64,000 nucleotides of DNA from Bacilli bacterium (GTDB lineage: Bacteria; Bacillota_I; Bacilli_A; RF39; UBA660), in contig JAFXYF010000005.1 in assembly GCA_017541885.1 (NCBI GenBank), positions 7,835 through 71,834 on the forward strand. The letters are read 5' to 3'. Below, in pieces: positions 16,236 through 20,038 of this stretch; within the stretch, counting starts at the first letter, position 1; every line of letters starts with the position of its first letter. Under the pieces are notes generated by a model. That model made no database searches and was not told where the DNA came from. It saw only the letters and a list, made by a program, of their open reading frames with translations. The position numbers were made by a program, and so were the translations under genes.

Positions 16236-16263
16236 AAAAACACCTCAATGAGGTGTTTTTTTT
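16236..16263. terminator. bidirectional rho-independent terminator
   Basis: AAAAACACCTC-AAT-GAGGTGTTTTT has an A-run and a T-run on either side. It lies between convergent genes. Confidence 0.85.
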
Positions 16264-17671
16264 ATCTTGTTCTTCCAATTCTAATTCCTGCTTCATTACA
16301 ATATGTATCAAAGTAGGCTTCCATATGAGCAACATCTAAATTATATTCTTCTGGTACATCATAAGTCATTCTATCTATGTATTCATCTCTTATCTTCTTT
16401 GCTGTATCATATGACATATTTGGATTAATTTTCTTTCTATAATACATCTTTGCTATATAGTCATATAAAGGGTAGAAATTCTTTTGTTCTACTTCCATAT
16501 TTTTATCATGATAGTCTTTATATTGAAGATTAATAAGGGCAAGCATTTCTATTGCTTTATCATCTCCATTTTGTTTATTAAGTTCATTTTCAAAATATGT
16601 TATATTATGTTCTACAAAATCTTGATAAGTATAATTATCTAGAGATTCTACCATCATTTCTACCATATTACTTTGTAATTGATATGCAATATCTCTTTCT
16701 GATTTATCATAAGATCTTAATGCTAGGAGAGAGTTTAGAGCTTCTTCTATTATTACTCCATCTCCTGATTTATCAGTGAATTGTACTCTTATTTCTTCTC
16801 CATTTTTCTTTATAAAACCACTTCTTATAGGGTGAGCCATTTCATGCATTATTACTTGATATTCCCATGTACCGGGTTCATATTTATAATCTTTAACAGT
16901 ATAAATAGTATTTTCATCTTTTCTATAACAAGCATATGCTGTAGCGCTTACAGCTTTTACTTTCATTTCCATTTCTTCTACTTCTAGAACTTTCATTGTC
17001 TTAAGATTTTCATACCATACTCTTAAATCCATGTTTGGGTATTCTCTTTGAAGATTATTTGCTAAATCAATATACATTGTTTTAAATTTCTTTGGAATAC
17101 TACTATTACTATTTATAGTTTCTTTTATTTTTTCATATGTAATATCTTCTTTTGGATATCCTAAAACTTCATCTAATCTACTACTATCAAGAACAATCTT
17201 CATATGGAAGCCTTCAATTAGACCTTCTACTTCAAAGTTTTCTTTTTTCTTATTTGCTTCTTCTAATATTTTGTCTACAACGTCTTCTTTGGCTTTTTCT
17301 TCTACTTTTTCTTCTGTCGTTGAAACACTATTTGTATATGGAGTTTGTACTGGCTCGTTTTGAGATATATGATTGTTGTATTCATTATCTAGCATTCTGC
17401 CACAACCAGTGGTCATCACAAATAAAGTAGTGCCAATAAAGATCATTGGTATTAGTTTTAATTTTTTCTTGTTTTTTCCTTCTTCAATTAATAAAACATA
17501 GTCTTTTGGAATAAATACATTTGTTAATTCTACTAATTCTTGAAGAGTTATATATTCTAACTTATTATTATCATTTTTTCTTACAAAGAAGTACTTGTGT
17601 TCATTATCAAGTAAATATAGATACTTTTTATCTTTATATGTGAATTCTGAAATAATATTGTATTCGATCAT
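16262..17671 (-). CDS. single-pass membrane protein with an extracytoplasmic HExxH (zincin-like) domain, uncharacterised
   Basis: About 469 aa. A roughly 75-aa N-terminal cytoplasmic module is followed by the hydrophobic segment LIPMIFIGTTLFVMTTGCG and a roughly 370-aa outer domain. That domain contains IMHEMAHP (HExxH) with EEALN about 30 residues later. I prefer the ATG at 17671 (AGGTGA RBS); the track starts at GTG 17680. Confidence 0.6.
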   Translation of the reverse strand: MIEYNIISEFTYKDKKYLYLLDNEHKYFFVRKNDNNKLEYITLQELVELTNVFIPKDYVLLIEEGKNKKKLKLIPMIFIGTTLFVMTTGCGRMLDNEYNNHISQNEPVQTPYTNSVSTTEEKVEEKAKEDVVDKILEEANKKKENFEVEGLIEGFHMKIVLDSSRLDEVLGYPKEDITYEKIKETINSNSSIPKKFKTMYIDLANNLQREYPNMDLRVWYENLKTMKVLEVEEMEMKVKAVSATAYACYRKDENTIYTVKDYKYEPGTWEYQVIMHEMAHPIRSGFIKKNGEEIRVQFTDKSGDGVIIEEALNSLLALRSYDKSERDIAYQLQSNMVEMMVESLDNYTYQDFVEHNITYFENELNKQNGDDKAIEMLALINLQYKDYHDKNMEVEQKNFYPLYDYIAKMYYRKKINPNMSYDTAKKIRDEYIDRMTYDVPEEYNLDVAHMEAYFDTYCNEAGIRIGRTR

Positions 17672-17826
17672 ATTAATCACCTATGTTTATTCTATCATAA
17701 TATGTAAACTTTATTTTTATTTTTGTAAAGTAATGTGTTAAGACTTGACACATAAATTTTAGTAGTGATATCGTTAAATTGTAATGATAAATTGTGTGTT
17801 AGCGTATAGGATAGGAGGGATTGGGA

Positions 17827-18177
17827 ATGCAGAACGAGGAAAATGTTAGTTTATGGATTAATGAAGAGAATCTTGGATCTTTTGCGATGAATTTGTTAAC
17901 CACATCAGAAGATGTATCTGAAATCTTCTCATCTATCGATAAAAAGATGGAAGCATTAAAACTCTGTTTTGATGGATCAGAATATGATCATTTGATGTCT
18001 AAGTATCGTGATTTTCGTAAGAATTATTCAGTTGCTAAAAACAATATTGTTTCTTATTCTGATGACTTAATTGCTCTTATTAATAAGGTTAGAGCTGGAG
18101 ATAAGAATATTGCATTTTTACTTGAGCAAATGACTAAATATGCTAACGAAAAAGCCAAAGAAATTGAAAATAAATAG
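17827..18177 (+). CDS. small helical WXG100-like protein (degenerate motif F-D-G)
   Basis: 116 aa, predicted all-helical. CFDGSEYD occupies the position of the hairpin turn. GGAGGG RBS. First gene of a six-gene array next to essC. Confidence 0.5.
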   Translation: MQNEENVSLWINEENLGSFAMNLLTTSEDVSEIFSSIDKKMEALKLCFDGSEYDHLMSKYRDFRKNYSVAKNNIVSYSDDLIALINKVRAGDKNIAFLLEQMTKYANEKAKEIENK

Positions 18178-18188
18178 GAGGTGTTTTG

Positions 18189-18500
18189 ATGGCTTTAGAT
18201 TTAGAACAATCAACAATTGGATACGACAGATCTGCTATGGAAAGAACATTACAAAATGTTCATAATGATTGTGTTTTACATGCACAAACAAAACTTAGAA
18301 ATAGTTTAAATAATCTAAGTGAAGATGTAAAAAAATGTTGGGCTGGACAATCAGCTAGAAACTTTATGCTTAATATGATTACTGATGTAGATCAAATCTG
18401 TAAAGGATTAGATGCTGCATACGATGGCCTTGAGGGAGAATTTAAGATGGTTTTATCTGGATTATCTCAAGTTGATCAAGAGCTAATCGAGAGACGATAG
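18189..18500 (+). CDS. WXG100-family (EsxA-like) protein
   Basis: 103 aa with a central W-x-G motif (KKCWAGQSARNF) between two helical halves. AGGAGGTG RBS. Confidence 0.8.
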   Translation: MALDLEQSTIGYDRSAMERTLQNVHNDCVLHAQTKLRNSLNNLSEDVKKCWAGQSARNFMLNMITDVDQICKGLDAAYDGLEGEFKMVLSGLSQVDQELIERR

Positions 18501-18512
18501 GAGGGAATAATA

Positions 18513-19100
18513 ATGAATGATGCTTTAGATACTGCAAAGGATATAGTTGCAGGTGCTAGTGATTTAGTTGGATCAGCAGTAGGAGGAGTTGCAGGTGCTG
18601 TTAACCAAACAGGAAAATCTGCAGTTAAAAATGGTATTTCTCCTTTCTTACAGTCTATTGGTGATGCTATTGGTGGATTTGGAGCTCAATTAAGTAATAA
18701 AGCTGCAGTAAATAGTAATAATAACCTTAGATTTCAAACTCAAGTTGGTGGATTTGTTGCTAATGTATTTGGTGATGATTTTGCCGGAGTTAGTAATTTT
18801 GAAGATTTAAAAGAGGCTATTTCTAAATATTCTCGTGAAGTTCAAGAAATTGTTAAAGAATATGATGAAAGAGCAAGACTTGATACTACTTTTAAAGGTA
18901 AAGCTGGAGAAGAATTACATACTTTCGTTGAAGCTACAAAAGAATTATTAAATGCTTATGTTAAATTAATTGAAAAATGGAATGAAGAACTTGATGATGC
19001 TTATGCAAGATATCAAGCTGGAGACGTTCAAATTCAACAAAATGTTCAAAGTGATGCTCAAGCAGTTCAACAAGCTGCACAAAACGTATCTCTTGGATAG
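18513..19100 (+). CDS. 195-aa protein with an N-terminal Gly/Ala-rich glycine-zipper segment and a C-terminal WXG100-like helical hairpin
   Basis: GxxxGxxxG occurs at G20/G24/G28 (LVGSAVGGVAGAV), followed by GDAIGGFGAQL. The C-terminal roughly 100 aa is helical with FKGKAGEE at the turn and a Gln-rich tail. GGAGGG RBS. Confidence 0.6.
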   Translation: MNDALDTAKDIVAGASDLVGSAVGGVAGAVNQTGKSAVKNGISPFLQSIGDAIGGFGAQLSNKAAVNSNNNLRFQTQVGGFVANVFGDDFAGVSNFEDLKEAISKYSREVQEIVKEYDERARLDTTFKGKAGEELHTFVEATKELLNAYVKLIEKWNEELDDAYARYQAGDVQIQQNVQSDAQAVQQAAQNVSLG

Positions 19101-19130
19101 TTAAAAAAATAATATATTGGAGGTGTCGCT

Positions 19131-19430
19131 ATGTCTGTTAACTCATGCTATGAGGCAATAGGTAGATATAATGCATTAAAAGTTAGTCTTTCAAATGTTG
19201 TAGGGCAACTTAATGCTGCTCATTCGAGAATATCTCCTGTACCTGGAGCAATTCTTTCTTCTTATAGTGTGAATGAAAATAAGACACCTATTGTTGGAAG
19301 AGTTGAAGCTCTTGATAAAGACATAGCGGACACAGCCAATTATATTTCTAAAACTGTGATACCTGCTATTGATAAAGCTATTTCTCAAAAGAGAAAAGAA
19401 ATGACTCAATTGCAACAGGAAGAGTCTTAG
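19131..19430 (+). CDS. small helical protein in the T7SS substrate array (hypothetical)
   Basis: 99 aa with a GGAGGTG RBS. No W-x-G; it has a Pro/Gly turn (SPVPGAIL) in the middle. Confidence 0.5.
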   Translation: MSVNSCYEAIGRYNALKVSLSNVVGQLNAAHSRISPVPGAILSSYSVNENKTPIVGRVEALDKDIADTANYISKTVIPAIDKAISQKRKEMTQLQQEES

Positions 19431-19440
19431 GAGGGGTATT

Positions 19441-19734
19441 ATGAAAGTTGATACTGTTGAGATGAAAAGTATTGCTGGTGAGATTAATCAATTAGCAGTA
19501 CAATATCAAACTAAGATTTCTCAAATGTATAATAAAATTGCACAGATGCCTACAGTTACAAAAGAGTGGACTGGAAATAAAGCACAAGAATATGTTTCAT
19601 ATGTAATGTTAGATAAAACTGATATGATGATTGTAGGAGATAGAATTAAGGACTTTGCTAGAGATATTATTGATACAGCAAATAGAATGGAAAGTTTTGA
19701 AACTACTGCAAGAGGAGATGAGACTGATGACTAA
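19441..19734 (+). CDS. WXG100-family protein
   Basis: 97 aa with a central W-x-G (TKEWTGNKAQEY). GGAGGGG RBS. Confidence 0.8.
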   Translation: MKVDTVEMKSIAGEINQLAVQYQTKISQMYNKIAQMPTVTKEWTGNKAQEYVSYVMLDKTDMMIVGDRIKDFARDIIDTANRMESFETTARGDETDD

Positions 19735-20038
19735 GATTATTTATCCTGAGTCTGATACTTTAACTTCTTTAGTACGTAATTCTATGAATGATACTTTGCA
19801 AAGTTTAAATAAAGCTCAAAGTTATTGTTCTTATTTAATTCCTAAAGATTTTCAATACCTAAATTATGTTAATAATTTAGGTGGAAAAATTGCTGGATTT
19901 AGTAATGAACTTAACAAGTGTTATAGTGCTTTAGGAAAAGTTGATAGAGATTATCAAAACACTTTATCATTAATTCATGAATCTTGTGAATTATTAGATA
20001 CGAGTACTATTCCAGAGAGAAGTAGACTTATAAAGTAG
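19727..20038 (+). CDS. small helical protein in the T7SS substrate array (hypothetical)
   Basis: 103 aa counted from ATG 19727, which overlaps the stop of the previous gene (ATGACTAA). The track start at 19655 would overlap the upstream CDS by 80 nt. A terminator follows. Confidence 0.5.
   Translation: MTKIIYPESDTLTSLVRNSMNDTLQSLNKAQSYCSYLIPKDFQYLNYVNNLGGKIAGFSNELNKCYSALGKVDRDYQNTLSLIHESCELLDTSTIPERSRLIK

Follow-up and report, generated by a model that had tools for sequence, protein, structure and literature searches.

A predicted bitopic zincin-like protein associated with a compact EssC-type secretion locus in a Bacilli bacterium

The only protease known in any secretion system of type VII (T7SS) is MycP (mycosin) of the T7SSa or ESX systems, a membrane-tethered enzyme with an outward-facing catalytic domain that is a conserved component of its locus (PMC11217815). 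For the staphylococcal T7SSb, a dedicated CHAP-domain peptidoglycan hydrolase, EssH, follows the ess cluster from one genomic context to another; it is associated with the EssC complex, and secretion across the wall requires it (PMC13059805). Subtypes c-j bring in kinases, phosphatases, FHA and Ig-repeat proteins, with no peptidase-like component (Garrett, Higginson & Palmer, 2024; PMC11217815), and none of the later T7SS papers searched describes one. The subject here is a gene for a putative membrane-anchored HExxH protein found inside a T7SS-like locus, in a 64,000-nt stretch of an uncultured Bacilli genome (GTDB lineage Bacillota_I; Bacilli_A; RF39; UBA660; contig JAFXYF010000005.1, positions 7,835 to 71,834), referred to below as the window. 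The initial annotation of the window had remarked that no protease belongs to the described T7SSb cores; this can be extended to all of the described subtypes b-j.

The protein is quite likely a dedicated partner of one compact EssC lineage, because it is strictly co-inherited with that lineage, has an operon position in many loci, keeps its catalytic motif, and is found where the usual membrane partners are absent. The fuller proposal, that it is a T7SS-dedicated bitopic zinc peptidase subunit which acts on the cell envelope, is the favoured explanation but a tentative one, with chances of being right as a whole that fall just short of even.

Like MycP, it would be a membrane-tethered, outward-facing peptidase domain encoded inside a T7SS locus. 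MycP is subtilisin-like, with a signal peptide as well as a C-terminal transmembrane (TM) helix, whereas this protein has an HExxH motif, an N-terminal cytoplasmic domain, and a signal-anchor; a Pfam scan gave no match to Peptidase_S8, and there is no homology to MycP. The likeness to EssH is that of an extracytoplasmic hydrolase following T7SS genes through different contexts, with a putative wall activity in the present case, but EssH is a soluble, Sec-secreted enzyme of the cysteine (CHAP) type, while this protein is predicted to be membrane-anchored and has a zinc-type motif. EssB (YukC) of T7SSb is also bitopic, with its N-terminus in and its C-terminus out, and the HExxH gene shares with it a position upstream of essC, in ten loci; however, EssB has a cytoplasmic pseudokinase domain of about 220 aa and no HExxH, and its Pfam family (PF10140) does not match here. 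With subtypes c-j the locus shares a TsxC ATPase, a TsxB ubiquitin-like protein and WXG100 proteins, to which those subtypes add membrane partners of their own; the survey describing them used RefSeq, whereas the carriers here are metagenome-assembled genomes (MAGs) or metagenome contigs. As a T7SS variant, the cassette seems not to fall within the a-j scheme.

Association with one EssC lineage

The genes for three distant homologues of the HExxH protein (37-46% identity) all have as neighbours a gene for an EssC of 1520-1529 aa, an 84-aa gene, and six small genes, while the flanks of the three loci are unrelated. Scanning GTDB species genomes gave 43 loci; by tblastn and a hidden Markov model pass, 31 of the 35 full-length homologues (those with the N-terminal domain described below) adjoin such an EssC-YukD-six-small-gene cassette, at identities of 33-58%. 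The gene is found in three arrangements: divergent from essC; co-directional with essC and directly upstream of it, 4-86 nt away, in ten loci; and in inverted orientation between yukD and the small genes, which is the arrangement of the window. Flanking genes differ from locus to locus among these EssC-linked copies. Every carrier found of the EssC-linked form is a MAG or a metagenome contig of an uncultured organism; all of the evidence is computational, and MAG incompleteness could hide genes.

An unbiased census covered 151 genomes, each of 0.7-1.6 Mb, from the order to which the window belongs. Of these, 78 encode EssC, with about 100 genes in total, of which only five (in G052, G071, G084, G066, and G060) have products at least 45% identical to the window's EssC, the rest being at most 42% identical. 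A strong full-length HExxH homologue was found in exactly those five genomes, directly beside that EssC, and by none of the other EssCs. Synteny with essC, which the initial annotation had marked as informative, is thus conserved in related genomes, in the scan as in all five of these census cases. In a tree of 48 EssCs (FastTree), 26 of the 27 HExxH-adjacent ones group together in a single clade that contains no other EssC and has a local support of 100%; subclades recur in a tree of the HExxH proteins from a quick IQ-TREE search.

It is conceivable that a pattern of this kind might arise without any functional coupling, the protein being a general surface peptidase whose adjacency to essC comes from shared descent or a mobile island. 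Several facts would fit: in Clostridia, and in the form of longer paralogues, the family does without a T7SS; linkage to EssC is missing for four full-length copies; and the window's copy has a promoter region and a terminator of its own. However, the adjacency outlasts three rearrangements, varied flanks and divergence to 33% identity; the gene is the first of the essC operon in the ten co-directional loci, with the short gaps given above; copies outside the cassette lose the N-terminal domain; and in the census the gene is matched to one EssC clade in 6 of 6 cases, with none of the approximately 95 other EssCs having it. Because of the census, such hitch-hiking is judged improbable.

Bacillota T7SSs are believed to require EssB, EsaA, and EssA, or the kinase and phosphatase partners of subtypes c-j. 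No EssB/YukC (PF10140) was found in the window's own genome or in 12 other cassette genomes (0 of 13), and neither EsaA nor EssA was found above cut-off in the window's own genome, the only one searched for them. This leaves the HExxH protein as the one further membrane protein that is obvious in the cassette.

Predicted architecture and active site

The open reading frame (ORF) is real, not a chance one: its translation is free of stops over 469 aa, at the 29% G+C of the window long chance ORFs are rare, and homologues number 231 in one database and 308 cluster representatives in another. Because an AGGTGA ribosome-binding site lies 5 nt upstream of ATG 17671, and all aligned homologues begin with the same M-[KI]-E-Y, this ATG is taken as the start; an alternative GTG at 17680 is judged unlikely on the same grounds. 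The ORF of about 469 aa that had been placed on the opposite strand between essC-yukD and the WXG operon is thus correct in its coordinates, has an open frame, and is preceded by a ribosome-binding site.

An AlphaFold model of the full-length protein was built with a 34-sequence alignment, and the predicted ectodomain (residues 146-469) was also modelled alone. Residues 1-55, the N-domain, are modelled as three beta-strands and one helix, with a predicted local distance difference test score (pLDDT) of about 70-85, and include four invariant residues (Y17, D22, F29, and Y40). The TM segment that follows is aligned in all full-length homologues. Lys and Arg together number five in the 15 positions that precede the hydrophobic span, against zero in the 15 that follow it, so that an N-in/C-out topology is predicted. 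Independent support for an extracytoplasmic C-terminal domain comes from relatives without the N-domain, which begin with signal peptides or lipoboxes before the same domain (e.g., P0139, MKKLLFLIAVMGMLAGCGQ). The contigs with P0139 and P0172 are too short to give a gene context. In the full-length protein, a linker of about 55 aa, variable in length among homologues, separates the TM helix from the ectodomain (324 aa), the latter being modelled alone with a pLDDT of 93.6 and a predicted template modelling score of 0.92.

The initial annotation had described a cytoplasmic N-terminal module of about 75 aa, a hydrophobic span ending in a lipobox-like TTGCG, and an external domain of about 370 aa. 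The first stands, as about 75 residues do precede the span, including the folded residues 1-55. The last is predicted to be external as claimed, but is not a single domain, consisting instead of the disordered linker and the 324-aa fold. The lipobox has to be given up: its Cys is found in the nearest relatives only and is not conserved in the alignment. The hydrophobic span is therefore read as a signal-anchor TM helix, and a lipoprotein is rejected, both for this reason and because of the roughly 75 residues, with their folded domain, that lie ahead of the span.

The ectodomain includes the sequence IMHEMAHP (residues 274-281) and, downstream, EEALN (309-313), with E310 30 residues past H280. 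In alignment A1 (34 sequences, down to 36% identity), H276, E277, H280, E310, and N313 are all invariant. The broader alignment A3 extends to 22% identity and retains just these invariant positions: I192, N222, H276, E277, H280, E310, Y330, and D351. HExxH is found in all 243 of the collected family proteins of at least 330 aa, and longer paralogues keep a Glu at the place equivalent to E310. The suggestion of an HExxH motif with a downstream Glu as possible third zinc ligand is thus borne out by conservation.

In the ectodomain model, a beta-strand is followed by the HExxH helix (124-138 in the model's numbering), a beta-hairpin, and the helix with E310 (161-176). This order of elements, as modelled, together with the 30-residue His-to-Glu spacing, is the zincin or gluzincin arrangement. 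In gluzincins and minimal zincins (M9, M34, M13, M78 ImmA/IrrE, and MPTase-PolyVal), the HExxH helix likewise comes after a beta-sheet and the Glu ligand is on the next helix. The motif around the Glu is ExxN here, while the third-ligand motif of thermolysin and neprilysin is ExxxD; moreover, there is no significant fold match and no Pfam or NCBIfam family, and the ectodomain has a C-terminal helical elaboration of about 150 residues without counterpart in the zincin peptidases compared. By alignment and model, the protein belongs to an unclassified zincin-like family whose active-site signature is intact, and it is likely to be an active zinc peptidase, with zinc binding and catalysis predicted from these residues.

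The initial annotation had also offered a structural stand-in for a missing membrane component, which can be taken to mean that the protein replaces EssB as the bitopic partner of EssC, with catalysis irrelevant or vestigial. The predicted N-in single-pass topology is that of EssB; the place of the gene in ten loci, directly upstream of essC, is the one that essB has in T7SSb; EssB was not found in 13 of 13 cassette genomes; and other EssC lineages of the order carry different membrane proteins in that slot. There is, however, no sequence or fold similarity to EssB or YukC and no PF10140 match, so that homology to EssB is rejected, and the N-domain has 55 aa and is not a pseudokinase. A pure scaffold would also be expected to drift, while the catalytic motif is invariant in all members, the EssC-linked ones included. 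As the motif is kept in every member, a purely structural role is improbable, and this part of the earlier proposal is not retained.

Relatives outside the cassette and possible substrates

The wider family comprises about 300 clusters at 50% identity and is without a Pfam model. Its carriers include gut MAGs (Hadza human, rabbit, sheep, and goat among them) and cultured Blautia and Dorea. Copies without the N-domain, about 380-500 aa long, are found in Lachnospiraceae, Oscillospiraceae, and Atopobiaceae, none of them near EssC; cultured carriers include Blautia luti and Dorea ammoniilytica. These homologues are up to 53% identical and keep all catalytic residues. The N-domain is present in all EssC-linked copies and missing in all 14 copies outside an EssC context (Clostridia or Actinomycetota). 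In the tree, the copies without it are nested in EssC-linked clades, two of them (L013 and L014) in the window's own subclade with 98-100% support, which suggests repeated escape from the cassette by horizontal transfer, with loss of the N-domain. One further homologue, in a record labelled Tidjanibacter massiliensis (Bacteroidota; L045), is on a 4.2-kb contig and groups tightly with Lachnospiraceae copies; it is probably a binning contaminant, not a cross-phylum occurrence.

Longer paralogues of 566-881 aa, found in the window's taxonomic order, have the same parts: the same N-domain, a TM helix, and HExxH with the Glu. At three of the five loci inspected, the paralogue (691-718 aa) comes directly after a gene for a secreted glucosaminidase (PF01832): L059, 4857-7542; L061, 4097-8221; and L062, 3091-7230. 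In the last two it is followed by murD. The T7SS cassette itself is near murD and FemAB in the window and in L004; the window's own genome has no long paralogue.

A profile of the N-domain, searched against the 151 genomes, matched only within the family (EssC-linked members and the longer paralogues). As no other architectures were found, the N-domain gains no support as a portable T7SS-docking module. When residues 1-95 were used in a word-based search, near-identical proteins alone came back.

Since the catalytic family is common in T7SS-free genomes, and paralogues are encoded beside glucosaminidase and murD genes, a substrate specific to the T7SS is unlikely. Proteolysis in the envelope is favoured because cells without a T7SS have the same enzyme and because wall-enzyme genes neighbour its paralogues; taken by itself, the proposition that the substrate is in the envelope rather than secreted is evenly balanced.

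The main rival looks to MycP: the external peptidase would trim the emerging WXG-like substrates or stabilise the EssC complex, and would not act on the wall. T7SSa provides a precedent, in MycP (PMC11217815). The coupling to the cassette is strict, six candidate substrates are encoded with it (one of them with a Gly-rich extension), and the predicted topology would put the active site where substrates exit. One argument against this role is that homologues up to 53% identical, with complete catalytic residues, are found in EssC-free genomes (8 of 12 tested); paralogues are found in such genomes as well, and a substrate confined to T7SS cargo is hard to reconcile with them. Cargo processing or stabilisation of the complex is accordingly considered unlikely.

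The preferred explanation, a dedicated subunit acting on the envelope, would work as follows. The lineage would consist of EssC, a YukD-like protein, six WXG100-like proteins, and the HExxH protein, with no EssB, EsaA, or EssA. The TM helix and N-domain would hold the protein at the EssC translocon, probably by docking, with a putative contact to EssC itself. The flexible linker of about 55 residues would hold the ectodomain above the membrane and let it reach into the wall. There it might cut envelope peptide bonds locally, in peptidoglycan stems or bridges or in wall-bound proteins, which could open a path through the wall for the minimal machine and its substrates.

A number of observations weigh against this explanation. 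Sequence and profile searches of Pfam, NCBIfam, and the PDB with the protein and its profile gave no meaningful match; matches to MICSWaP (15.8 bits) and bioA (11.4 bits) were set aside as noise. Foldseek comparison of the full-length and ectodomain models with the PDB and BFVD found nothing at E <=0.001, and for this reason no MEROPS family is assigned. The best protease matches had E values of 0.0014-0.3 and template modelling scores of at most 0.25; they were to the M9 collagenase peptidase domain, anthrax lethal factor (M34), neprilysin/PepO (M13), and AM0627, with IrrE-like, PolyVal, and SprT-like zincins weakly matched among viral models. A few family members have sub-threshold Pfam matches to MPTase-PolyVal, Reprolysin_5, and Peptidase_M91. 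As there is no significant fold or sequence match, the peptidase assignment relies on the motif, its conservation, and the order of secondary structures. The remote-homology and structure comparison proposed for the external domain thus agrees with a zincin in its order of elements but gives no significant fold or family match.

Other such observations concern the association with EssC and the envelope. Four of the 35 full-length homologues are not beside EssC; they are in three genomes, with two in one MAG, and all three genomes encode EssC elsewhere. One HExxH-adjacent EssC (L034) is outside the clade that holds the others. Of the 12 genomes tested that have copies without the N-domain, eight have no EssC at all, and the longer paralogues are in genomes without EssC or are far from it. 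Because these paralogues carry the N-domain in EssC-free genomes, it is not a docking module for the T7SS only. The envelope link derives from the paralogue neighbourhoods at three loci, and HExxH enzymes are not the usual peptidoglycan peptidases. The initial annotation had held that its proposal would fail if the family occurred mainly in genomes without essC; on this point the wider family is indeed common outside T7SSs (the same 8 of 12), while the full-length form is EssC-linked (31 of 35). No wall-hydrolase Pfam domain (CHAP, NlpC/P60, lytic transglycosylase, or amidase) was found in the HExxH protein.

A bolder formulation, possible but rather doubtful, would add to T7SSa-j a minimal subtype that has not been described. 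A sole bitopic zinc metallopeptidase partner of EssC would in this subtype replace EssB, EsaA, and EssA and couple proteolysis of wall or cargo to secretion, having been recruited in small-genome gut Bacilli from a housekeeping envelope peptidase encoded next to murD. If this were true, it would be the simplest T7SS architecture described, with one tethered zinc peptidase as the only extra membrane protein, and it would join MycP as a second, independent example of a protease that is an integral T7SS part. How T7SS substrates cross the thick wall is a question to which EssH is a recent first answer. A peptidase of this kind would offer a defined enzyme for the question of wall remodelling or cargo processing, and a first functional handle on a sizeable uncharacterised family.

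Features of the window and of other EssC lineages

The features discussed are listed in Table 1.

Table 1. Features of the HExxH gene, its predicted product, and the surrounding cassette (window coordinates).
Feature	Position	Strand	Basis
HExxH gene (P0001), 469-aa predicted bitopic protein	16262..17671	minus	Open frame, ribosome-binding site, homologues
Predicted cytoplasmic N-domain, residues 1-55	17507..17671	minus	AlphaFold secondary structure and conservation
Lys-rich patch (GKNKKKLKL) and predicted single TM helix, residues 66-92	17396..17476	minus	Lys/Arg count, alignment
Predicted disordered Ser/Thr/Glu/Lys-rich linker, residues 93-145	17237..17395	minus	pLDDT < 50; gappy alignment columns
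Predicted extracytoplasmic zincin-like domain, residues 146-469	16265..17236	minus	Ectodomain model
HEMAH (H276, E277, H280), putative zinc-binding/catalytic motif	16832..16846	minus	Invariant in both alignments
E310-A-L-N313 on next helix, putative third zinc ligand	16733..16744	minus	Invariance, ectodomain model
EssC ATPase, 1528 aa	11392..15978	+	FtsK_SpoIIIE E 3.6e-49; TIGR03928
YukD/EsaB-like gene, 84 aa	15978..16232	+	Size, position, and conservation only
Six small helical WXG100-like genes (17821-18177, 18186-18500, 18513-19100, 19131-19430, 19441-19734, 19727-20038)	17821..20038	+	Weak WXG100/LXG/DUF6507 matches; recurrence with essC
Bidirectional intrinsic terminator common to the HExxH and YukD-like genes	16236..16260	both	11-bp stem, 3-nt loop, T-runs
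Divergent intergenic region, HExxH gene/small-gene operon	17672..17820	n/a	Promoter-like sites on both strands

The HExxH gene sits between the YukD-like gene and the first of the small WXG-like genes, and is convergent with essC-yukD. The terminator that the initial annotation had assigned to both the HExxH gene and yukD is well founded: AAAAACACCTCAATGAGGTGTTTTT (16236-16260) is a perfect 11-bp palindrome with T-runs on both strands, and scores as a terminator on both; three terminator-like sites were found, against 0.5 expected in shuffled sequence. On the other side of the gene, promoter-like sites are found on both strands (for example TTGACA-18-TATCGT with TG, 17745-17774, plus strand), but these are consensus matches only, at a frequency not above that in shuffled sequence.

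The divergent transcription from the small-gene operon in the window, together with a bitopic form and a small conserved cytoplasmic domain, might suggest a transmembrane sensor or regulator like BlaR1 or an anti-sigma factor, with the N-domain controlling that operon. The N-domain matches no DNA-binding or anti-sigma family, however, its profile finds no other architectures, and in most loci the gene adjoins essC and is not divergent from the small genes. Such a regulatory role is very improbable.

The window's EssC scores 922 bits against TIGR03928 (T7_EssCb_Firm; cut-off 778) and is one of the 26 members of the EssC clade described above, all of them with the HExxH gene next to them. An HE..H string is found near residue 700 in most of the EssC proteins examined; the bare motif is common and means little alone. 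The YukD-like gene is directly 3' of essC in all related loci, with products 37-64% identical, and its product had no Pfam match even at E = 10. The matches of the six small genes to WXG100, LXG, and DUF6507 are mostly under Pfam cut-offs; related loci have most or all of the set together with essC, and one of the proteins is extended at its N-terminus by a long Gly-rich stretch. In the program-made ORF list the sixth gene is 19655-20038, with a TTG start, but a start at ATG 19727, overlapping the stop of the fifth gene (ATGACTAA), is more likely.

A second EssC locus in the same genome, outside the window (G000:C16:69376-73911; L057 9347-14791), has no HExxH partner. It encodes a 1523-aa EssC, an 85-aa YukD-like protein, and small proteins of 123 and 71 aa, and its neighbours are a ZIP transporter, an M23-like protein, a 112-aa TM protein, and SpoIID-like, Zn-phospholipase-C-like, and Abi_2 proteins. 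This arrangement recurs in other genomes of the taxonomic order (L064, L066, L073, L074, and L079).

Two further genomes have six small genes with an EssC. G030, whose EssC belongs to another lineage, encodes between yukD and the small genes a 595-aa lipoprotein-like protein (L078 5087-6874, minus strand) with VIMHESVH and a downstream E-G-S-T-D. It was not counted as a family member (hhalign probability 27%, E 6.7e-4); from its sequence it would be either a very remote homologue at best or an independent zincin recruitment. The cassette in G112 (L081 12190-14007, minus strand) has no HExxH protein. Upstream of its essC are two genes whose products may be alternative membrane partners: a 304-aa protein that has CxxC motifs and, near residue 254, a hydrophobic span, and a 295-aa zinc-ribbon protein with three TM helices.

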